A stretch of DNA of 20,000 nucleotides from an uncultured virus (IMG/VR IMGVR_UViG_2061766007_004224) (IMGVR_UViG_2061766007_004224), one strand, 5' to 3'; shown: positions 3,635 to 17,418, numbered from the stretch's first letter. Made by a program: numbers and translations. The notes: generated from the sequence alone by a model not told the origin.

Positions 3635-4023
3635 GCCAAGGCGACAATACGCCCGGCATGAGCAAATTTGCCGGAGTGATCGACAGCATGATTCAGAAGC
3701 GGAAGGACACTTCGCTGCTTCTGGACTACGGCGTGATTCAGGATGACCTGAGCCTGATAACAAACACTTTTCCAATTCCCATCCCAAAGAAGGATTATAT
3801 GTGCTGCCGTCACTTGAAAGCCATCCCGGAGAAAGATCGGTGGACGACGGAGTATGCCGGGACGCACACGCACCCCGGAGGCGATGGAGGCAGCGCAGGC
3901 TCACACGCCCACAAATTCCAGCCTCATTGGGTGCTGAAGAAGGGAGATCGCGTTCTGGTGGCGTGGGTGCAGAACGACCCCGTGGTCATCGACGTGATCG
4001 TCCATGCAAACGAAGTATTCTGA
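3631..4023 (+). CDS. XkdR/DUF2577-like baseplate spike protein
   Basis: ATGA overlap with the hub gene; HTH...HAH histidine pairs; LKKGDRVLV...VVIDV C-terminus typical of this family. Confidence 0.7.
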   Translation: MSQGDNTPGMSKFAGVIDSMIQKRKDTSLLLDYGVIQDDLSLITNTFPIPIPKKDYMCCRHLKAIPEKDRWTTEYAGTHTHPGGDGGSAGSHAHKFQPHWVLKKGDRVLVAWVQNDPVVIDVIVHANEVF

Positions 4024-4038
4024 TGGGAGGTGTGATAG

Positions 4039-6843: not shown

Positions 6844-7476
6844 ATGCCTTATCCCCAGACCGATTGGAAAGACCATGTAACGGAGTATGAAAACCGCTAC
6901 ACGGAATCCACGAACCCGGACGGCTCGATCACCCACACCAAAGTCGAGGGCGAGGTCATCCAGCAGGGTACGCCCATGAGCGCAACCAACTTCAACCACC
7001 AGGAAGATGGCATTGGCGAAGCCGCTGCGCTGGCTGACGCGCTCTTTACTCAGGTCCTGCTCCTGCTGGGCCACGGTAAGTATTCTCTGGAAGAGCTGGA
7101 CGCTGCGAAGCTGGACGTGAACGGCAAAGCTGCCGACGCTGCGAAGGCCGATAAGCTCGGTACGCCCCGGACGATTGCCATTTCTGGCGGTGCGACCGCT
7201 GCTGGCGTGTCCTTCGACGGCAGCGGGAACATCACGATCATCGTGACCGAGCTCGACCCCTCGAAACTGTCTGCTGCCGTAGCTGTCGCAAAGGGCGGCA
7301 CTGGCGCTACGGATGCTGCCGGAGCGCGGACGAACCTCGACGTGCCGTCCAACACAGACACTATCTCGGCGATGATTCTTGGGGATGCGCAGCGCTCCGT
7401 CGATCAGGCGGTGCAGCGTGACCTCGATGAACGGCTGATCACCGCCGAAGCGCAGATCGCCGCGATGGGAACCTAA
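6844..7476 (+). CDS. Short tail-fibre protein
   Basis: AAAGGAGG RBS; fibre motifs GTPMSATNFNHQEDGI, KLGTPRTIAISG...SFDGSGNITI and VAKGGTGATDAAGARTNL; C-terminal coiled coil. Confidence 0.75.
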   Translation: MPYPQTDWKDHVTEYENRYTESTNPDGSITHTKVEGEVIQQGTPMSATNFNHQEDGIGEAAALADALFTQVLLLLGHGKYSLEELDAAKLDVNGKAADAAKADKLGTPRTIAISGGATAAGVSFDGSGNITIIVTELDPSKLSAAVAVAKGGTGATDAAGARTNLDVPSNTDTISAMILGDAQRSVDQAVQRDLDERLITAEAQIAAMGT

Positions 7477-7718: not shown

Positions 7719-7883
7719 ATGGCTTACAACCTGATGAAGCGCATCATCGAGCGCGACAAAAAGGCCGGGACGCTGGACAAGGCGGCGATCATGGACAAGC
7801 TCGACGCTTTCCTTGCTGCCGACCGTCTGACCACGGCACAGTATCAGGAGCTGGTGGCTCTCATGGATGCTGATGCCGAATGA
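7719..7883 (+). CDS. 54-aa XkdX-like small protein, copy 1 (absent from the ORF track)
   Basis: GGAGGAG RBS, ATG 7719, TGA 7881-7883. Translation MAYNLMKRIIERDKKAGTLDKAAIMDKLDAFLAADRLTTAQYQELVALMDADAE; 29/54 identical to the next gene. Confidence 0.8.
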   Translation: MAYNLMKRIIERDKKAGTLDKAAIMDKLDAFLAADRLTTAQYQELVALMDADAE

Positions 7884-7963
7884 ACAACCTGTTGACCAAA
7901 TTTGCCATCTGGTGGACAGATCGGCAATTTGAGAAATCTCTCAGAGAAATGGAGGACTTCGCT

Positions 7964-8128
7964 ATGACCTACAAGCTGATGAAGCGCATCATCGAGAATG
8001 GCCTGAAGAAAGGCAATCTCGACGTGGAATCGACCATGCAGAAGCTCGACGTGTTCCTCATGGCTGACCGTATCACCATTGAGGAATATCAGGAGCTGGT
8101 CGAACTGATCGAAGGGGGTAACACCTGA
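7964..8128 (+). CDS. 54-aa XkdX-like small protein, copy 2 (alternative start at 7880)
   Basis: GGAGG at 7951-7955 precedes ATG 7964 and gives exactly the same length as the paralogue; ITIEEYQEL motif. Confidence 0.75.
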   Translation: MTYKLMKRIIENGLKKGNLDVESTMQKLDVFLMADRITIEEYQELVELIEGGNT

Positions 8129-9333
8129 TGAACGTCAAAGAGAGCATTGAGCGCTTTGCGAAAGATCAGGGCTGGGTGGTCAAGTACGCCGCCGATGGTA
8201 CGCCCAACTTCTTCTATCCCATCTACAAGTGCAAGAGCAGCGACCTCGATGCTTCGCTGCCGAATCACACCCACCCGGCGTTTATCGTCAATGGGCAAGA
8301 AATCCCCAGACGTTTGATTGCCGTATACAAGGGCGGCAACTTCAACAATGCCTGCCACAGCATTCCCAACGTCGCCCCGCTGGTCAACCTCGGCGCTGAC
8401 CAGTTGCTGAACAAGATCAAAGCCTGCGGCGCTGGCTTCGGCCCCAAGACCGTTGCTGACAGCGGCCTGCTTCTCCTGCTGGCTAAAAAGCTCGGATGCA
8501 GCACCATCAAGGGCAACAACGACCGTGGCGTGGACTACCGCGACGGCACGAAATGGACTGCCGGAGTGAGTATCACCGCTGGCAATACCCGCGTATTCCA
8601 GGGTGTGGAGTATACCGCGCTGGTTTCCCATACGTCCGCGCTGGAGAACAAGCCTGATGTTGCCCCCCTGTACTGGGAGCGTGGCAGGCGCATTGGCGGT
8701 GTGCCCGTGGCCTCTCAGATCAGCGACAGCGAGCCGAACGGCCTGAATACCCTGACTGGTTCCGGCCCCAAGAGCTGGCGCTTCGGCGGCAAGGCCAACG
8801 GCATTGATGATCTGACTGGCAACTGCTACGATCAGGATTACGGCTATCGCATCGTCGGCGGTGAAATCCAGATTCTGGAGAACAACAATGCTGCAGACCC
8901 GGATGCCGATCTGGGTGCGGACAGCGCCGCGTGGAAGGCCATCCTGCCCAGCAGCGTCGATGGGTCCTATACGCTGGTCGCCCCCGGTACTGCCGGAACG
9001 CTGAAGTGGAACTGGCTGAACAGCAAGATCACGCTGGACACCGCCACCGACACTACGCTGGGCCAGAAGAGCACCGTTTTCAAGGACCTCGCTGTCAACA
9101 GCGTCAACGTCCCCTATGTGCCGTATATCATGTACGAGCTGGGTCTGTTCCCCATCTCCGGCGATCAGACGCAGGGAACGGTGTACATCGAATTCACGAC
9201 TGCGGAGCGGTTCCCTCGTCGCGGCGGCTACTGCAACTACGCGTCTTCCTCAGGTTTGGGCATCGTGAGCGCCTCCCTCGCGCGGTCGTACGCGAGCTCG
9301 TACTATGGCGTGCGCTCCGGCTTTGTTGAATAA
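8128..9333 (+). CDS. DGR target protein: C-type-lectin/FGE-sulfatase-like fold, Mtd-like putative receptor-binding protein
   Basis: THPAFIVNG, LTGSGPKSW, NGIDDLTGN and the C-terminal RGG...YGVRSG motif; the C-terminus is the VR matching the TR at 9834-9951. Confidence 0.9.
   Translation: MNVKESIERFAKDQGWVVKYAADGTPNFFYPIYKCKSSDLDASLPNHTHPAFIVNGQEIPRRLIAVYKGGNFNNACHSIPNVAPLVNLGADQLLNKIKACGAGFGPKTVADSGLLLLLAKKLGCSTIKGNNDRGVDYRDGTKWTAGVSITAGNTRVFQGVEYTALVSHTSALENKPDVAPLYWERGRRIGGVPVASQISDSEPNGLNTLTGSGPKSWRFGGKANGIDDLTGNCYDQDYGYRIVGGEIQILENNNAADPDADLGADSAAWKAILPSSVDGSYTLVAPGTAGTLKWNWLNSKITLDTATDTTLGQKSTVFKDLAVNSVNVPYVPYIMYELGLFPISGDQTQGTVYIEFTTAERFPRRGGYCNYASSSGLGIVSASLARSYASSYYGVRSGFVE
9205..9322 (+). 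repeat. DGR variable repeat (VR)
   Basis: 118-nt ungapped match to 9834-9951 (offset 629); 20 mismatches, 19 of them opposite TR adenines. Confidence 0.97.
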
Positions 9334-9360
9334 CTGGTCTCTGGTCTCTGGTTCCTGAAA

Positions 9361-9378
9361 GGGGCGCGAAAGCGCCCC
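9361..9378 (+). promoter_or_regulatory. GC-rich hairpin/cruciform downstream of the VR (DGR target-recognition element)
   Basis: GGGGCGC-GAAA-GCGCCCC, 27 nt after the target stop codon; can be extended by GAAA/TTTC (9357-9360 with 9381-9384). Confidence 0.85.
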
Positions 9379-9404
9379 CGTTTCCTCATTCCTGCAAGGA
9401 GTAT

Positions 9405-9779
9405 ATGGCTATGAGCGACAAAGAACTCATCCTGAAGGAAAAGGTCTGCGACATGCTGGACTATATGCGCGACCGCCTGAAGAATTTTCCCAAGGAAGAG
9501 CGAAGCGGAATCACGCCGCGCATCCGGGCGGCGGGCTATGAACTGCTGGAGATTGCGTCGGACATCGGCAACGGCTACTATACGCAGACGAATCTGAAAG
9601 CCTTTGACCGAAGGAAGAACGCCATGTCCGCATTTCTGGATTATTCCCTGCGCTGCGGCTATATCACTCCGCACCAGCACAAAACATGGGGCGGGATGCT
9701 GACAGAGATCGGGAAGATCAACGGTGGATTGATGAAGGCTCTGGAGGCGAAGCAGGCTGCGCAGCCGCGCAGACGCTGA
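9405..9779 (+). CDS. avd: DGR accessory variability determinant (Avd, four-helix bundle)
   Basis: AAGGAG RBS; 124-aa basic helical protein with FPKEER and EIGKINGGLMK motifs; lies between VR and TR. Confidence 0.88.
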   Translation: MAMSDKELILKEKVCDMLDYMRDRLKNFPKEERSGITPRIRAAGYELLEIASDIGNGYYTQTNLKAFDRRKNAMSAFLDYSLRCGYITPHQHKTWGGMLTEIGKINGGLMKALEAKQAAQPRRR

Positions 9780-9801
9780 CCCTCCGGGCCTTTTCTCAAT
9801 A

Positions 9802-10115
9802 GGGAATAAACTGCATAGCGCAGCGCCTTTTTTGAGCGGTTCCCTCGTCGCGGCGGCAACTACAACAACACGTCCAACACAGGTTTGGGCAACGTGAACG
9901 CCAACAACACGCGGTCGAACACGAACACGAACTATGGCGTGCGCTCCGGCTCTGCTTCCAGCATCCGCGCATCTGCGCGGTGGAAAGACCAGTATGCGAG
10001 GGCGGCCACGGCTTCCCTCGAAGTGCCACGGAAGCAAAGGAGTTTATTTCCACTGGCGGTGAGGACAGCCCGCCATGAACATGATTGCCGTGTAGATAGG
10101 AATATCACGCACGGC
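9802..10115 (+). ncRNA. Putative structured DGR template RNA (TR plus flanking paired elements)
   Basis: 9802-9812 is complementary to 10041-10051 and 9826-9830 to 10036-10040; local hairpins at 9956-9985, 9997-10020, 10054-10075 and 10087-10115. Confidence 0.6.
9834..9951 (+). repeat. DGR template repeat (TR)
   Basis: Non-coding AAC-rich copy of the VR (11 AAC codons in the VR frame, 31 adenines), between avd and the RT gene. Confidence 0.97.
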
Positions 10116-10137
10116 GAGGCGGTGCGGGAGGTGCATC

Positions 10138-11268
10138 GTGCAAAAGGCAACGAATGTCATGCAACGCATCGTGGCCTATGAAAATTTTCTCCGTGCCGAC
10201 AAGGATAGCAGCAAGAGCAAACGGTTTCGCCCGGAGGTCATGGCTTTCAATAACCACCTCTGCGAGAACCTGCTTTCCCTCGAAGCCGATTTCCTCTCAG
10301 GCGAATACGAAAGCGGCCTCTACACGGAGCGTTATGTCCGCGTTCCCGTGACACGGCTCATTGAAGTGTCGCAATTCAGAGACCGCGTGGCACAGCAGGC
10401 CATTTACGGAGAACTGTGCCAGATTCTCGATAAGCATTACATCTATCACAGCTACGCCTGCCGCAAGGGCAAAGGCGCGATAGATGCCTCGCTCAATCTG
10501 CAAAACTGGCTCAGGCTGATTCGCAGGAAGCCAGACGCTGAGAAATGGGTATGTGGCAAGATCGACGTGGCGAAGTTCTTTTACCGCATCGACCACAAGG
10601 TCGTCATGGACCTGTACGCCAAGTACATTGACGACCCGCTCACGCTTCAGGTGATCGGCAGTATCATCAACTGCAAGCATACGCCTTTCGGCCTGCCGGA
10701 AGGGAAAGGCTGCACCGAAGTACCCAAGGAAGAGCGGCTGTTCGATGTGGGTGTCCCCATCGGCAGCCTGATGTCGCAGACCACGGCGAACATGGTTATG
10801 AACGAAGTGGACCAGTTCGCCAAGCACAACCTCCACATCCATTTTTACACCCGGTACATGGATGACATCATCATCCTTGCGCCGGACAAAGAAACGCTGC
10901 ATCGCTGGATGGCCGAGATCGAGCGGTTCATGCTGGAGCGCCTGAAGCTGAAATGCAACCGCAAAACCCAGGTCATCCCGCTGTCCCACGGCATCCCGTT
11001 TGTCGGAAAGCGCATATGGGCCAACAAGATTCTTCTTCGTAAGTCCACCGTCAAGCACATGAAACGGGCGCTCCGCAAGATCGCCGAGGAATACAGGAAT
11101 TACGAGATCACCCTCGACCGTGCCATGCAGACGGTTATCAGCTACATCGGCCTGCTGTCCCATTGCAACGGCGAGGGCCTGAAGGAATGGATTTCCCAGA
11201 ATATTTCGTTCACGCACGGAGATTCCTATGGAGAATGGAATGGTGAATATGAGCAGATCGCCGCATAG
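10138..11268 (+). CDS. DGR reverse transcriptase
   Basis: GGAGGTG RBS with GTG start; RT motifs FRDRVAQQAI, SYACRKGKG, KIDVAKFF, GVPIGSLMSQ and YTRYMDDIII; 376 aa with no maturase or endonuclease extension. Confidence 0.95.
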   Translation: MQKATNVMQRIVAYENFLRADKDSSKSKRFRPEVMAFNNHLCENLLSLEADFLSGEYESGLYTERYVRVPVTRLIEVSQFRDRVAQQAIYGELCQILDKHYIYHSYACRKGKGAIDASLNLQNWLRLIRRKPDAEKWVCGKIDVAKFFYRIDHKVVMDLYAKYIDDPLTLQVIGSIINCKHTPFGLPEGKGCTEVPKEERLFDVGVPIGSLMSQTTANMVMNEVDQFAKHNLHIHFYTRYMDDIIILAPDKETLHRWMAEIERFMLERLKLKCNRKTQVIPLSHGIPFVGKRIWANKILLRKSTVKHMKRALRKIAEEYRNYEITLDRAMQTVISYIGLLSHCNGEGLKEWISQNISFTHGDSYGEWNGEYEQIAA

Positions 11269-11509
11269 AGACACCAATGCACCGCGAGATCACCCCAGAA
11301 GGTTTTACTCCATCATCGAGCGCGAGGACGGCCTCGTGGATGTGTATCTCGCGCCGGAAGTGACCGCTTATGACACCGATGTGGGCATCCGTGAGTACGA
11401 CATATCTGTCATCGCCGTCTGCGGCGTGGTGCCGTGGCCGGGTCTGGAAGAGGACGTTCGGAAGCGTTTCGATGCGTGGTGCGAAAGCGGAGAGGAGATT
11501 TACCTATGA
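11228..11509 (+). CDS. Hypothetical acidic protein (start may be 11240 or 11249)
   Basis: Overlaps the RT 3' end, and its TGA overlaps the next ATG (ATGA); codon usage resembles its neighbours. Confidence 0.65.
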   Translation: MENGMVNMSRSPHRDTNAPRDHPRRFYSIIEREDGLVDVYLAPEVTAYDTDVGIREYDISVIAVCGVVPWPGLEEDVRKRFDAWCESGEEIYL

Positions 11510-11637
11510 AGGAGTTTGCCATCGTCCTTGCCGTGGTGCTCGTCATGTTCGTGCTTCTCAGCGTCCTTCTCATGGTCGCCCTGTACTGGACACACTACCC
11601 ATACGGAAGGAGCAAGAAATGGCGAAGGAAAAAATAG
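11506..11637 (+). CDS. 43-aa single-pass membrane protein, possible lysis accessory
   Basis: GAGGAG RBS and ATGA coupling; MKEFAIVLAVVLVMFVLLSVLLMVALYWTHYPYGRSKKWRRKK is a hydrophobic helix plus a basic tail. Confidence 0.6.
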   Translation: MKEFAIVLAVVLVMFVLLSVLLMVALYWTHYPYGRSKKWRRKK

Positions 11638-13193
11638 CCGACATCAGCACCTATCAGGATGATGTGGACTGGCAGAAAGCGGCGCAGGAGCTTTCGTTCT
11701 GCATCCTCCGCGCCAGCATCGGCCAGAAAGCGGATTCCAAATACCTGCGGAACGTGGACGGCTGTATTCAGCACAACGTCCCGTTCGGAGCCTATCACTA
11801 CGTCAAGGCCGGGACCGCCGAGGACGCGAAAGCGGAAGCGCGGTTCTTCGTCCAGACGACGGCGGCAGCGGCGACCAAGCCGCTGTTTTATATTGCGGAC
11901 ATCGAGTACAAGGCCCAGGACAGCGCCACCACGGAGCCTGTCTGCGTCGCGTTCCTCGAAGAACTCCGCGCCCTCGGCTGCTCGAAGATCGGCCTTTACA
12001 TCAACACCCGGTACAAGTGGGCGGGAGCCGCCATCCCCATGTGCGACATCATGTGGATTCCCCATTGGGGCAAGAACGACGGCAGCATCCCCGCCCCTCA
12101 GTACGAACCGAAGAACCCCTGCGACCTTTGGCAGTATACCTCCAAGGGTACGCTCGCCGGGGTAAAGGGAGACGTTGACCTGAGCGCCTGCTACGGTGGC
12201 AGGGACGTTTCCTTCTTCACGGAAGGATGGAACCCGGAAAGGGGTGTCAGCACCATGTTTACCAATCTTCAGTTCGCCGCGTATTGCCTCGCGGTTTTCG
12301 CGGCGAAGTGGGTCTACTGGTACGGGACCTGCGGGTACGAATGTACCATCTCCCTGTACAACCGCAAGAAGGAACAGTATTCCAAGTATTACACTGATGC
12401 CCGTGCCAGCGGTTATAAGGCCGACATCGCCAACGGCTGCATGTGCGCGGATTGTGTCGGCCTCATCAAGTCCTTTTTCTGGAAGGGCGGCGACCTGAAC
12501 GGCAAGAACGTGTATCAGGCCAACAACTGCCCCGACCGCAGCGCGGACGGCATGTTCTCGCTCTGCGTGGAAAAAGGTGCGATCTCTACCATCCCCGACA
12601 TCCCCGGCCTGCTGGTGCATAAGAGCGGGCATATCGGGGTGTACGTCGGCGGCGGGTACACCGTCGAGATGAAGGGCTTTGCCTATGACTGCGTGAAGCA
12701 GAAGGTCACGGATGGGCCGTGGACTGAATGGGGCAAGCTGCCCGACACCATGCTGGCCTATCTCACCGAAGGCGAGGTCGAACAGCCTGTCGCCTTCAAG
12801 CTCGGTGATCGGGTCCTCAGCAAAGGCAGCGCTGGCGAAGACGTGTCCGAATTGCAGGCGCATCTCGTGACCCTGGGCTACAATATCGGCGCGTCCGGCC
12901 CTGCCAAGGATGGCGTGGACGGCGACTTCGGCTCCAAGACGCAGGCTGCGGTCAAGGCGCTCCAGAAGTCCGCTGGCCTCGACCAGACGGGCGTGTTCGA
13001 TGCCAATACTCATAAGGCGCTGCTCGACGCGCTCGTGCCGTCCACGGTCGATGACCAGAACGACGATACCCCGGAGGGCGGCGGCGCTCCCGCCTACGTC
13101 CTCATTCTCGAAGGCGATGAGAAAACGCTTCGCCTTGTCCAAAGCGCCTATGGTGGGACGCTGGCAGCGGTAGACAGCGTAACCGTGGGATAA
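11619..13193 (+). CDS. Modular endolysin: GH25 muramidase + NlpC/P60-like peptidase + PG_binding_1 domain
   Basis: AAGGAG RBS before ATG 11619. GH25 motifs DISTYQ, GAYHY, DIE, LWQYTSKG and GDVDL; DCVGLIK and GHIGVYVG; GEDVSELQAHL..LGY and DGDFGSKTQAAVKALQ. Confidence 0.9.
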   Translation: MAKEKIADISTYQDDVDWQKAAQELSFCILRASIGQKADSKYLRNVDGCIQHNVPFGAYHYVKAGTAEDAKAEARFFVQTTAAAATKPLFYIADIEYKAQDSATTEPVCVAFLEELRALGCSKIGLYINTRYKWAGAAIPMCDIMWIPHWGKNDGSIPAPQYEPKNPCDLWQYTSKGTLAGVKGDVDLSACYGGRDVSFFTEGWNPERGVSTMFTNLQFAAYCLAVFAAKWVYWYGTCGYECTISLYNRKKEQYSKYYTDARASGYKADIANGCMCADCVGLIKSFFWKGGDLNGKNVYQANNCPDRSADGMFSLCVEKGAISTIPDIPGLLVHKSGHIGVYVGGGYTVEMKGFAYDCVKQKVTDGPWTEWGKLPDTMLAYLTEGEVEQPVAFKLGDRVLSKGSAGEDVSELQAHLVTLGYNIGASGPAKDGVDGDFGSKTQAAVKALQKSAGLDQTGVFDANTHKALLDALVPSTVDDQNDDTPEGGGAPAYVLILEGDEKTLRLVQSAYGGTLAAVDSVTVG

Positions 13194-13259
13194 CTCCAAG
13201 CGCACGGGCATTTTGCCCGTGAAATTGCCATCACGGGCAGAATGAAAGGACGTGATACC

Positions 13260-13577
13260 ATGCCTGAAGAACTCCAGAAAATGCTCCAGACCATCGCCAC
13301 CGAGCAGGTCAGAATGGGCGAGCAGATCAAGACCCTCTTCAATCAGCAGGAAGAAACCAAGCGGCTGGCTGAAAGTGTCCACGAACTCGCCACGTCGGTT
13401 AAGCTCCTCGCCTCCGCTCAGAAGTCCACCGAGAAGAAGGTGGACGATCTGACGGGGGATGTGGAGGAGATCAAGACCAAACCTGCTAAGCGTTGGGATG
13501 GAGCCGTCACCGTGATAATCACGGCCCTCGTCACGGCTGTGATTACCTTCGCCCTCACTAAGATTGGGCTGAAATAA
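13260..13577 (+). CDS. Coiled-coil protein with C-terminal transmembrane helix (XhlA/holin-associated type)
   Basis: AAAGGA RBS at 13245-13250 favours ATG 13260; heptad region followed by the KPAKRWD + VIITALVTAVITFAL TM segment; follows the endolysin. Confidence 0.7.
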   Translation: MPEELQKMLQTIATEQVRMGEQIKTLFNQQEETKRLAESVHELATSVKLLASAQKSTEKKVDDLTGDVEEIKTKPAKRWDGAVTVIITALVTAVITFALTKIGLK

Positions 13578-17003: not shown

Positions 17004-17168
17004 GTGAGGAGAAAGCGGAAGTATATCTGGGCGTATCTGGACGGCGAAAAACTGGTCGAAGTGATTCAGGCGGCCCTCGACAACAACATGATGGTCGATG
17101 ATCTGAAGAAGGTTTTGGTTCAGGAGAACCCCGGTCACATTGTCACATTCAAGATCGAAGAATATTGA
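17004..17168 (+). CDS. Hypothetical protein (54 aa)
   Basis: AAAGGAGG RBS before GTG 17004. Confidence 0.65.
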   Translation: MRRKRKYIWAYLDGEKLVEVIQAALDNNMMVDDLKKVLVQENPGHIVTFKIEEY

Positions 17169-17181
17169 GGAGGGAATAGAA

Positions 17182-17418
17182 ATGAGAAATTACCCAGTTC
17201 TTGTCACCGAATTGCTTCAAGCCACCGTCAACGTCAAGGCCAACAGTGCGGTGGAAGCCGTTGCCAAGGTGAAAGAATCGTGGGCTGGCGGCGGCATCAT
17301 GCTGGACGAAGAACACTTCACTGGCGTTGAGATCAGCGCCTGCGAAGGTAGCCTGAAATCCATCCTGCACCGCGACAAGTACGGAAACGAGTACTTGGAA
17401 GGGAGGGCTGCGAAATGA
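17182..17418 (+). CDS. DpnD/PcfM-like small protein
   Basis: GAGGAGG RBS; YPVLVTELLQATVNVKANSAVEAVAKVKESW...IMLDEEHFTGVEI matches the family pattern as recalled. Confidence 0.7.
   Translation: MRNYPVLVTELLQATVNVKANSAVEAVAKVKESWAGGGIMLDEEHFTGVEISACEGSLKSILHRDKYGNEYLEGRAAK

Follow-up and report, generated by a model that had tools for sequence, protein, structure and literature searches.

The 20,000-nt window analysed here (the whole stretch of DNA from the uncultured virus IMGVR_UViG_2061766007_004224) very probably harbors a complete BPP-1-type DGR of a contractile-tailed Clostridia phage from the rumen, in which CTG heptamers and a hairpin may mark the VR and whose target is likely a virion-borne adhesin or receptor-binding protein. 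All canonical parts are present and intact, with the order target-avd-TR-RT and a hairpin downstream of the VR, and the ORFs of target, Avd and reverse transcriptase (RT) are each full length in comparison with their own profiles. A preliminary description had claimed a complete DGR of BPP-1 architecture, and the arrangement is indeed the annotated BPP-1 order mtd-avd-TR-brt; the avd gene (9405-9779), the RT gene with its YMDD motif (10138-11268) and the hairpin (9361-9378) are intact as stated there. The VR is located within an ORF near its 3' end, and the TR is non-coding and adjoins the RT gene. A blastn search with the TR as query retrieved no second VR within the 20-kb window.

The VR (9205-9322; plus strand, like all parts of the cassette) comprises codons 360-398 of the 401-codon ORF 8128-9333, beginning in frame with the first of these. 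The TR (9834-9951), defined by the VR/TR alignment, lies downstream of the avd stop (9779) and ahead of the RT start (10138). Both repeats align without gaps over 118 nt and exhibit 20 mismatches, i.e. ten A>T, six A>G and three A>C exchanges (TR>VR) plus a single C>T. Accordingly, 19 of the 31 TR adenines differ in the VR, and the binomial probability of placing at least 19 of 20 mismatches on adenines, given 31 adenines in 118 nt, is 1.4e-10. The adenine-containing TR codons in the frame of the target are 11 AAC, four ACG and one each of ACA, TAC, TAT and GAG, and a stop codon is unreachable by A-substitution in any of them. The computed repertoire of the 19 potentially variable codons amounts to 5.7e17 protein variants and 4.6e18 DNA variants. 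The alignment with 19 of 20 mismatches at TR adenines had been described before and was reproduced exactly, our recount agrees with the previous 11 AAC and five ACN codons and the lack of a stop risk in AAC, ACN and TAY, and the former estimate of roughly 10^17-10^18 variants is in accordance with the computed values. That the likeness of VR and TR reflects chance or a duplication artefact instead of a DGR has a negligible probability, considering the adenine bias, the Avd and DGR-type RT genes that adjoin the pair and the equivalent arrangement in 49 of 84 related loci, where a VR/TR pair with at least 75% adenine bias is found at the same place.

The RT (10138-11268, 376 aa; RVT_1 1.6e-19, phrog_1423 7e-107) begins with a GTG codon 5 nt after GGAGGTG. 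Its motif 4 reads IGSLMSQ in the translation and the catalytic motif is YMDD; the pattern (I/V/L)GxxxSQ in motif 4 is a hallmark of DGR RTs according to the available part of PMC3521204. The best relative in the PDB is the Brt protein of BPP-1 (8ub7_A, E 3.9e-39), followed by group II-like RTs at about 1e-15. Candidate assignments to other RT classes were rejected, namely to group II intron RTs/maturases (TIGR04416, 103.9 bits vs. a cut-off of 300), retron RTs (St85 model NF038233, 36.3 vs. 235 bits) and the defence RTs Drt3a (59.7 vs. 200 bits) and Drt2 (40.4 vs. 390 bits). The best PADLOC match is a generic RT model with 123.7 bits. A grouping with group II intron or retron RTs had been named beforehand as an observation that would speak against a DGR; judged by its sequence, the RT belongs with the DGR RTs and not with these two classes, being nearest to BPP-1 Brt with group II and retron scores below the cut-offs. 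Wherever a record is annotated, the 40 phage matches listed in a tblastn search with the RT all coincide with RT genes, and in every fetched phage record among them the RT resides within a DGR-type cassette. The closest RTs of cultured phages among these matches are those of Faecalibacterium phage FP_Lagaffe, which tops the list with 45.8% identity, Clostridium phage Saumur (42.9%) and Bacillus phage BalMu-1 (38.8%).

The accessory variability determinant Avd (9405-9779, 124 aa) matches PF22296 bAvd with 51.3 bits (cut-off 40) over profile positions 1-106 of 107 and phrog_3206 "Avd protein of DGR" with 1.8e-19, and it scores 56.6 bits for NCBIfam NF033474, which lies under the equivalog cut-off of 80. 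The alternative ATG start at 9411 has a better spacing from the AAGGAG motif at 9396-9401. The TR-RT spacer (9952-10137, 186 nt) is presumed from its position to be the portion of the DGR RNA that serves priming and the binding of RT-Avd, analogous to the Sp region of BPP-1 as treated in the available text of PMC12875486. No Rfam family matched this spacer, and no intron RNA family was detected in the interval 9100-10300.

The target gene (8128-9333; phrog_2889 1e-63) encodes a variable protein of 401 aa with a TaqVP-like fold. Its AlphaFold model (pLDDT 95.3, pTM 0.92) predicts one C-type-lectin fold of the FGE type, in which the VR makes up the C-terminal binding face, and a Foldseek comparison with the PDB matched TaqVP (5vf4) over the full length with an E-value of 2.4e-33, TM-scores of 0.79 (query) and 0.83 (target) and 28% identity. 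A trimeric receptor-binding protein of the Mtd type was rejected, as all 401 aa align to the single-domain TaqVP and Mtd (1yu0) is found at rank 31 with a TM-score of 0.11 and an E-value of 0.18. Residues ~143-183 form a CBM5/12-like insert, whose CBM_5_12 score of 19.7 bits is below the cut-off of 26.2, and chitin-binding domains are also present among the Foldseek matches. Past the top two, the structural neighbours in BFVD are mostly annotated as tail collar fibre or tail fibre proteins. In a comparison of 118 homologues, the AAC-encoded positions are the most variable ones with 9-15 residue types and 2.2-3.4 bits, and they are flanked by invariant scaffold residues.

VR and TR are identical over the first 24 nt (VR positions 9205-9228) and the last 21 nt (9302-9322). 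The latter, GC-rich segment follows the last mismatch at offset 96, and the homology ends after 9322; by analogy, this constant segment is the putative equivalent of the (GC)14/IMH start, which forms the 3' boundary of mutagenesis (available parts of PMC3240598 and PMC5758913). Straight after the target stop codon, four phased CTG-containing heptamers (9334-9360; CTG at 9334, 9341, 9348 and 9355) with an exact period of 7 nt fill the interval up to a GC-rich hairpin or cruciform (9361-9378) with a 7-bp stem and a 4-nt GAAA loop. The hairpin falls into the GRNA class and corresponds to the rule given in the accessible part of PMC3240598, namely a GC stem of 7-10 bp and a GRNA loop; its distance of 38 nt to the end of the VR/TR homology is just over the range of 4-34 bp reported in the same text. 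Its stems co-vary among relatives, with 194 of 230 pairs formed vs. 47-59% if the partner is slid. The CTG array is kept in the same position across 40 distinct relatives from several phyla and is in register with the hairpin loop. The 40 distinct 45-nt post-VR intervals contain 151 CTGs vs. 30.9 +/- 5.2 in shuffles, and 94 of 111 CTG spacings measure 7-8 nt, whereas no CTG array was found after the TR in the relatives compared. We found no description of a CTG array next to a DGR target in the literature. The array may represent a VR-side element that discriminates VR from TR, for which it is a candidate.

The available text of PMC5703328 contains the proposal of Naorem et al. for BPP-1 that pairing with RNA downstream of the TR is involved. 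Our computation revealed no excess pairing of the CTG array with the TR-downstream RNA (-20.2 kcal/mol for the window's own RNA vs. -20.3 for others), whereas BPP-1 reached -32.0 kcal/mol with its own vs. -23.7 with other RNAs in the same calculation. This lack of pairing to the spacer is compatible with a different function, namely that array and hairpin are unrelated to retrohoming and constitute a regulatory or terminator element of the target/avd junction, providing either regulator sites for avd-TR-RT or a structure at the mRNA 3' end. Both are indeed intergenic and located 17 nt upstream of the avd ribosome-binding site, and a terminator role for such inverted repeats was weighed by Wu et al. 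(PMC5758913, part available). We regard this explanation as possible but rather unlikely: the hairpin lacks a T-run and was not classed as terminator-like, the equivalent hairpin and the IMH of BPP-1 work at the DNA target (PMC3240598, available part), and the second of the two CTGs in the BPP-1 IMH is lost in the IMH* of the TR. Moreover, the array is in register with the hairpin and accompanies the VR even in combination with RT and Avd of a different lineage (L003-L005; 45% and 26% identity, respectively).

The following course of events can be proposed, with the cDNA route inferred from the biochemistry of BPP-1. The avd-TR-RT unit would be transcribed, and a complex of RT and Avd would copy the TR RNA into cDNA, thereby misincorporating nucleotides opposite template adenines. 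The cDNA would then replace the VR at the 3' end of the gene 8128-9333, with the GC-rich constant segment 9302-9322 as the 3' limit and a 5' limit that would be set by homology (9205-9228). We hypothesize that the VR, and not the TR, would be marked as recipient by the downstream CTG heptamers (9334-9360) together with the GAAA-loop hairpin (9361-9378). The expected outcome would be a TaqVP-like C-type-lectin protein whose ligand-binding face varies at 19 codons, including 11 AAC codons.

The DGR was apparently active in the recent past. In comparison with the nearest viral relative (L001), whose TR is 94% identical to that of the window, five of five TR differences at non-adenine positions have their counterpart in both VRs, and 11 of 12 such differences to a second relative (L097) recur in the cognate VRs. 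This mirroring of non-adenine TR differences documents a flow of information from TR to VR since the divergence from these relatives. The only VR-VR difference that is left unexplained in both comparisons is position 9246, which is also the sole non-adenine mismatch of the window (T in the VR, C in the TR; synonymous TCC>TCT); this T is private to the window, as L001, L097 and the contigs of runs X3 and X5 all have C. Among the 13 VR differences listed for X3 up to position 9275, 11 fall on TR-adenine positions, and one, at 9242, falls on a TR cytosine. Assembled contigs of an independent rumen sample (X5) showed 26 differences in a 447-nt piece with the VR, four in a 394-nt upstream piece and three in a 661-nt piece with the whole TR.

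A cassette that is intact in sequence could nevertheless be a recently silenced relic with a frozen VR, and the non-adenine mismatch at 9246 as well as decayed cassettes in two close relatives are in line with such a scenario. The TR of L003 is cut after 57 nt, and L004 is left with 26 nt of the TR and a short ORF for the RT; therefore, the lineage does lose the system. For the window we nevertheless consider silencing very improbable, since none of the three ORFs is shortened relative to its profile, a single one of 87 non-adenine positions has drifted, and this synonymously, TR changes are mirrored in the VRs of diverged relatives, and the near-identical phage of the other sample differs mainly in the contig piece that holds the VR.

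The genomic surroundings are those of a contractile-tailed phage. Genes for a sheath initiator (PF10934, 80.5 bits), Baseplate_J (181.6 bits) and a Mu Gp48-like protein (69.5 bits) are part of the window, which starts downstream of the place where the sheath gene would lie. A tail sheath gene is present in the L001 record (74.7 bits, cut-off 31.4; 100% complete according to CheckV), and this sheath together with the J/W/gp25-type baseplate of the window corresponds to a myovirus. Upstream of the target, on the plus strand, a gene for a tail-fibre-like protein of 210 aa (6844-7476) represents a candidate anchor for the target; its residues 96-191 match PHROG tail-fibre families (e.g. phrog_11393, 4e-11), its conservation is restricted to the N-terminal ~70 aa, and a homologue adjoins the target in 43 of 92 loci (tblastn). 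It is followed on the same strand by two tandem paralogous small ORFs (7719-8128; 54 aa at 7719-7883 and 82 aa at 7880-8128), which are both assigned to phrog_2310 of unknown function and share a direct repeat (7731-7855/7976-8100). The second ORF overlaps the target start codon by 1 nt, and homologues of the two are found beside the target in 22 and 21 of 92 loci. The downstream lysis module comprises a plus-strand endolysin gene with profile matches to GH25 and PG_binding_1 (11370-13193) and a gene for an XhlA-like protein (13242-13577; phrog_937). The phage originates from ruminant gut metagenomes, and the target has its closest genomic relatives (44-65% identity) in MAGs of Clostridia, Christensenellales, Oscillospiraceae and Eubacteriales, several of which come from the rumen. 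The earlier placement of the DGR in a contractile-tailed Firmicutes phage, between the fibre and lysis modules, is hence well reflected in the gene content: the baseplate genes of the window and the sheath of its nearest viral relative, the taxonomy of the target relatives, and the fibre-like and baseplate genes on one side of the cassette and endolysin and XhlA-like genes on the other.

The cassette has the gene order of BPP-1 and lies, as there, after a tail-fibre gene and before the endolysin. The RTs are homologous (32.8% identity, 1e-38), an Avd is encoded in each, and a VR of about 120-134 nt is C-terminal and paired with a TR rich in AAC codons. Both elements possess a constant GC-rich 3' segment, and a GC hairpin whose loop is GAAA follows the VR. 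The target differs as a single TaqVP-like domain that lacks the trimerising domains of Mtd (beta-prism as well as beta-sandwich), the VR/TR homology does not reach the stop codon region, and avd and TR are separated by 55 nt, whereas they abut in BPP-1. The hairpin of BPP-1 directly follows the stop codon, in contrast to its position behind four CTG units in the window. Like the IMH/IMH* of BPP-1, the array is placed between the GC-rich end of the repeat and the hairpin, in a stretch found at the VR and changed at the TR; CTG motifs occur in the BPP-1 element as well, and IMH* has lost one of them. However, the IMH contains only two CTGs that are 10 nt apart, while the array of the window has four units, is confined to the VR and is not a near-copy of a TR sequence.

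An identical layout is found in Lagaffe, Saumur and BalMu-1, where baseplate J/I-like genes are followed by small ORFs, a SUMF1-like target, Avd, TR, RT, further small ORFs, endolysin and holin. The VRs and TRs of this group differ only at adenines, CTG units 7-8 nt apart follow the VR, and Lagaffe gp26 is homologous to the target of the window (29% identity, E 1e-34). The latter has an extra insert of about 40 residues, and the Lagaffe hairpin has a 7-nt loop instead of a GRNA tetraloop. At the DNA level, the window exhibited no similarity to any of 50,697 phage records. The DGR of a Thermus aquaticus prophage encodes TaqVP, which like the protein of the window combines an insert-bearing FGE-type CLec fold with a VR of about 40 residues at the C-terminus. 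According to the available part of PMC6328139, TaqVP has nine variable codons (3e9 variants); the window has 19 potentially variable ones (5.7e17). Phage DGRs of the layout seen in Lagaffe, Saumur and BalMu-1 are already well known, and the element is an ordinary DGR.

The target gene at the distal end of the tail module most likely encodes a virion-borne adhesin or receptor-binding protein. The DGR could also be genuine and its target not a receptor-binding tail protein, serving instead the adherence of virions to mucus or particles, or acting as a surface or secreted protein expressed by the lysogen. Several traits agree with such a role, i.e. the one globular TaqVP-like domain without a fibre-like or trimerising N-terminal part, the monomeric state of TaqVP (available text of PMC6328139), and the chitin- or carbohydrate-binding-like insert with its weak CBM_5_12 match and the chitin-binding domains among the Foldseek matches. 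We nonetheless consider it unlikely in view of the conserved place of the gene directly after baseplate and fibre-like genes and before lysis, its translational coupling to the upstream small ORF, the cultured myophages with the same layout, the tail collar fibre and tail fibre proteins that prevail among the BFVD neighbours beyond the top two, and the annotation of the equivalent BPP-1 gene as receptor-binding protein. If the target served an end other than receptor binding, its diversification would not switch the host range. For a virion-borne adhesin or receptor-binding protein, whose virion location and host-range function are suggested by the position of the gene, the DGR may drive host-range switching of this rumen phage.

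The variable repeat (VR, 9205-9322) at the 3' end of the target gene and the template repeat (TR, 9834-9951) align over 118 nt without gaps, and realignment returned the same 20 mismatches as the preliminary description, 19 of them at the 31 TR adenines (10 A>T, 6 A>G, 3 A>C). The probability that at least 19 of 20 mismatches fall on adenines by chance is 1.4e-10. The sole non-adenine mismatch is a synonymous C>T change at 9246, which is private to the window, with C present in L001 and L097, two related loci carrying homologues of the target gene, and in contigs from two other samples. The VR is in frame and comprises codons 360-398 of the 401-codon ORF 8128-9333, and the TR is non-coding and situated between avd and the RT gene. 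The codon tally agrees with the 11 AAC and five ACN codons noted before: the adenine-containing TR codons are 11 AAC, four ACG, one ACA, one TAC, one TAT and one GAG, and a stop is unreachable by mutation from every one of them. Computation of the theoretical repertoire gave 5.7e17 proteins and 4.6e18 DNA sequences, which bears out the earlier estimate of 10^17-10^18 variants.

The avd gene, the RT with its YMDD motif and the VR hairpin, all described beforehand as intact, were each recovered by profile, motif or stem-loop analysis. The ORF 9405-9779 encodes Avd according to PF22296 (51.3 bits, cut-off 40) and the PHROG family "Avd protein of DGR"; its score lies under the strict NCBIfam equivalog cut-off. 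The RT (ORF 10138-11268) contains YMDD and IGSLMSQ, the latter an instance of the (I/V/L)GxxxSQ signature that is reported for 90% of DGR RTs in the consulted part of the DiGReF paper (PMC3521204). A grouping with group II intron or retron RTs had been named as the observation that would speak against a DGR, but the top solved relative is chain 8ub7_A (3.9e-39), the Brt protein of BPP-1, the Bordetella phage with the prototype DGR (mtd-avd-TR-brt). Group II-like and "retron-type" RTs rank next among the solved structures, at ~1e-15, and with the curated models of group II maturases, retron St85 and the Drt families the window RT stays below each cut-off. Among cultured phages its closest equivalent is found in Faecalibacterium phage Lagaffe (45.8%), followed by Clostridium phage Saumur and Bacillus phage BalMu-1. 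The gene order is common to the window, these three phages and BPP-1, so that the proposed BPP-1-type architecture holds; every structural feature tested for was found, and the element is a bona fide DGR. It works like that of BPP-1, but its target is not of the Mtd type.

The target was modelled by AlphaFold from 50 homologues with high confidence (pLDDT 95.3), and the model matches TaqVP, the DGR variable protein of Thermus aquaticus, from end to end (E 2.4e-33, TM 0.79-0.83, 28% identity); Mtd of BPP-1 gave no whole-protein match (TM 0.11). Together these comparisons predict a protein made up of one FGE-type C-type-lectin domain that carries inserts, including one similar to a chitin-binding module, and not a trimeric fibre. 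The target groups with TaqVP and the SUMF1-like targets of Lagaffe-type myophages. Among 118 full-length homologues, variability is highest (9-15 residue types) where the TR has AAC codons, and these positions are flanked by invariant scaffold residues. From the position of the gene, diversification of this monomer-type lectin domain may reasonably be presumed to switch host range.

Upstream of the target lie genes for a tape-measure C-terminus, a YqbQ-like protein, a sheath initiator, baseplate J, a Mu gp48-like protein, a 210-aa fibre-like protein and three small ORFs, and downstream follow a GH25/PG-binding endolysin and an XhlA-like protein. In 43 of 92 loci the target occurs together with the conserved N-terminal domain of the fibre-like protein (6844-7476). 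Conservation of this protein in relatives is confined to the N-terminal ~70 residues; many of them have a ~95-aa version consisting of this domain and a short helical tail, and others carry unrelated C-terminal extensions, a layout suggestive of a module that attaches to the baseplate and has exchangeable distal parts. Two tandem paralogous small ORFs of 54 and 82 aa (7719-7883, 7880-8128), both assigned to phrog_2310 (function unknown), are located immediately upstream of the target and are spanned by a direct repeat (7731-7855 / 7976-8100); the second shares one base with the start codon of the target, and 21-22 of the 92 loci have homologues beside the target. A 93-aa ORF (11228-11509) overlaps the end of the RT gene and the start of the endolysin ORF (11370-13193, 607 aa). 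The GH25 domain begins only at residue ~84-91, so the true endolysin start may be located further downstream than 11370. Beyond the lysis module, a small DpnD/PcfM-like protein (17140-17418; PF14207, 41 bits) is encoded amid unannotated ORFs, and the ORF 15745-16989 matches phrog_2319 (function unknown; 1.7e-57).

The metagenome runs that contain the window sequence derive from ruminant guts and from several studies; the small share of matching words in runs X14-X20 carries no information on habitat. The nearest viral relative is L001 (target 81% identical), located on a 68-kb record that is rated 100% complete and encodes a tail sheath; PF03354, the one terminase family searched, had no TerL match in it. 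The nearest genomic relatives of the target are encoded in MAGs of the class Clostridia (44-65% identity), several of them from the rumen, and the family extends to Proteobacteria at ~30% identity; these relatives were found with an alignment query, and a single-protein query of genome contigs gave none. A blastn search of 8128-11268 against 50,697 phage records had zero matches, and among metagenome contigs the closest relative reached 84%, with no identical sequence. Three loci (L012, L019, L059) stem from bins labelled Alphaproteobacteria, Succinivibrionaceae and Nanoarchaeia; their targets are 47-54% identical to the Clostridia type (31% in L059), and they may be phage contigs assigned to the wrong bins.

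In 49 of 84 related loci a VR/TR pair occupies the corresponding position and has an adenine bias of at least 75%. The TRs of the window and L001 differ at seven positions; five of these are non-adenine in both, and all five are mirrored in both VRs. In the comparison with L097, 11 of 12 non-adenine TR differences are mirrored in the VRs, the exception being the first base of the repeat. The remaining VR-VR differences in both comparisons all fall on TR adenines, 9246 excepted, and adenine-specific VR variation across related genomes is thereby documented. The mirrored TR changes and the adenine-only remainder indicate that copying probably continued after the lineages of the window, L001 and L097 had split. 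Assembled contigs were used for the comparison between samples. Those of X5, an independent sample with a near-identical phage, exhibit 26 differences in the 447-nt piece holding the VR, four in the 394-nt piece upstream and three in the 661-nt piece with the entire TR, and in X3 contigs 11 of the 13 VR differences are located at TR adenines, among the differences listed (up to 9275). The runs X6 and X10 were not counted, with contig cover absent or low over 9178-9282. Their contigs (9176-9930) join the VR flank to TR coordinates with an offset of 629 and skips of 645-656 that contain 16-27 foreign letters; these joints are most simply explained as foreign VR alleles closer to the TR than to the window VR, or as assembly joins across shared repeat ends, and were left out of the evidence.

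Two related loci contain decayed DGRs. In L003 (3179-3235 / 3974-4030) the TR is cut after 57 nt, and in L004 (1109-1134 / 1853-1878) no more is left than 26 nt of the TR and a short RT ORF of 147 aa; VR, CTG array and hairpin are retained in both. The two loci show that decay of the cassette does occur. The targets of L003-L005 are 63-69% identical to that of the window, but their RTs only 45-46% and Avd 26% or undetected; the RT and Avd of L001 are 77% and 82% identical. The combination of close targets with distant RT and Avd suggests that exchange has taken place between the target module and that of RT and Avd. L017 and L018 are located ~63 kb apart on one 86-kb MAG contig (70880-84076 and 7573-20769) and are the same DGR locus, with identical VR/TR coordinates and mismatch counts; the doubling may stem from a circular phage genome assembled as a concatemer, or from duplication of a prophage.

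Between the stop codon of the target gene and the hairpin, the window contains an array (9334-9360) of four CTG triplets, at 9334, 9341, 9348 and 9355, with an exact 7-nt period and a layout that is conserved in its relatives. Our analysis of the array comprised 44 loci whose VR/TR pair is full-length, drawn from a set of 50 including the window; the short partial pairs of L003, L015, L023, L030 and L066 and the duplicate L018 were removed. The 40 distinct 45-nt intervals after their VRs harbor 151 CTG, compared with 30.9 +/- 5.2 in 2000 shuffles (maximum 48), and 94 of 111 spacings measure 7 or 8 nt; the corresponding 45 nt downstream of the TR contain 27 CTG and not a single spacing of 7-8 nt. 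Relative to the hairpin loop, the CTG starts cluster at -13/-14, -21/-22, -28/-29 and -35/-36. The array was found in Lagaffe, Saumur, BalMu-1 and VP58.5 and is missing from Pseudomonas phage Haboob and the archaeal virus ANMV-1. The hairpin itself (9361-9378), with its 7-bp GC stem and GAAA loop, conforms to the rule of a 7-10-bp stem and a GRNA loop in the consulted part of Guo et al. (PMC3240598). In 46 of 49 distinct loci, three or more pairs close a loop of the G[AG]NA type, the next five pairs are formed in 194 of 230 cases versus 47-59% with the partner slid, and GC/CG swaps occur at several stem positions. Its reading as a terminator was rejected, given that it has no T-run and is not classed as terminator-like by the scan. 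Rfam returned for 9100-10300 merely a sub-threshold chance match to the PA5194 thermometer (19.6 bits, gathering score 60).

For BPP-1, pairing with an RNA primer has been proposed in the consulted part of Naorem et al. (PMC5703328), and we examined whether the array pairs with RNA downstream of the TR. Pairing with the 220-nt TR-downstream spacers had a mean z of -0.11, with z < -2 in two of 42 loci, and a comparison of own and foreign 80-nt spacers favored the own spacer in 21 of 43 cases (Wilcoxon p = 0.42), with CAG spacings of 7-8 nt in only two of 57. Neither test revealed an excess, so this pairing is rejected for the family of the window and does not explain the array here. BPP-1 differs in this respect, its own pairing between the VR-side directionality element IMH and the TR-downstream region being stronger than foreign pairings. 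Its IMH also contains two CTGs 10 nt apart, the second of which is lost in IMH*, the TR-side element, whereas the window has four at 7 nt.

Our tentative reading, possible rather than probable, is that in the phage DGR clade with TaqVP/SUMF1-like targets a composite single-strand element of CTG units and hairpin, absent from the TR, identifies the VR as recipient. The element would consist of three to five CTG units with a phase of ~7.3 nt in fixed register with the GRNA-loop hairpin, its scope would be a phage DGR clade in Bacillota, Proteobacteria and beyond, and the 21-bp IMH of BPP-1 would represent a degenerate two-unit form. A 7-nt period is off one face of the B-DNA duplex, which suggests that the array is read on single-stranded nucleic acid; recognition would take place on single-stranded DNA, e.g., the lagging-strand template, by RT-Avd or a host replication factor. 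Primase of Escherichia coli starts at CTG, and G4-type priming signals pair CTG with hairpins. Firmicute primases favor other triplets, which counts against a purely host-primase reading of the array. Recognition of a single strand agrees with the current view, as stated in the consulted part of PMC12875486, that entry of the cDNA into the sense strand takes place while this strand is the lagging-strand template. A phased CTG array is not described in the consulted parts of PMC3240598, PMC5758913, PMC12875486, PMC5703328, PMC3521204 and PMC6328139; Figure 5 of PMC3240598 and Supplementary Data 3 of PMC5758913, with many VR 3' flanks, could show it.

The window DGR is a sound but ordinary example from a rumen Clostridia myophage, valuable as a clean reference case with all parts intact, a repertoire of ~6e17 proteins and a TR-to-VR flow documented by comparison. 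DGRs have been catalogued in tens of thousands of genomes, and the CTG array is the part that goes beyond the ordinary; conserved and combined with its hairpin, it is a more useful product than the DGR itself. In some DGRs IMH and IMH* are identical, so that recognition must reach downstream, according to the consulted part of Wu et al. (PMC5758913), and the composite element, if true, would answer their question of how the two are told apart in such cases. The way in which the mutagenised cDNA locates and enters the VR and the reason for the sparing of the TR are called unresolved in the consulted part of the 2026 reconstitution paper (PMC12875486), and a short, phased and easily mutated CTG motif offers a direct experimental handle on both; the array may also be useful for the design of portable DGR targets.
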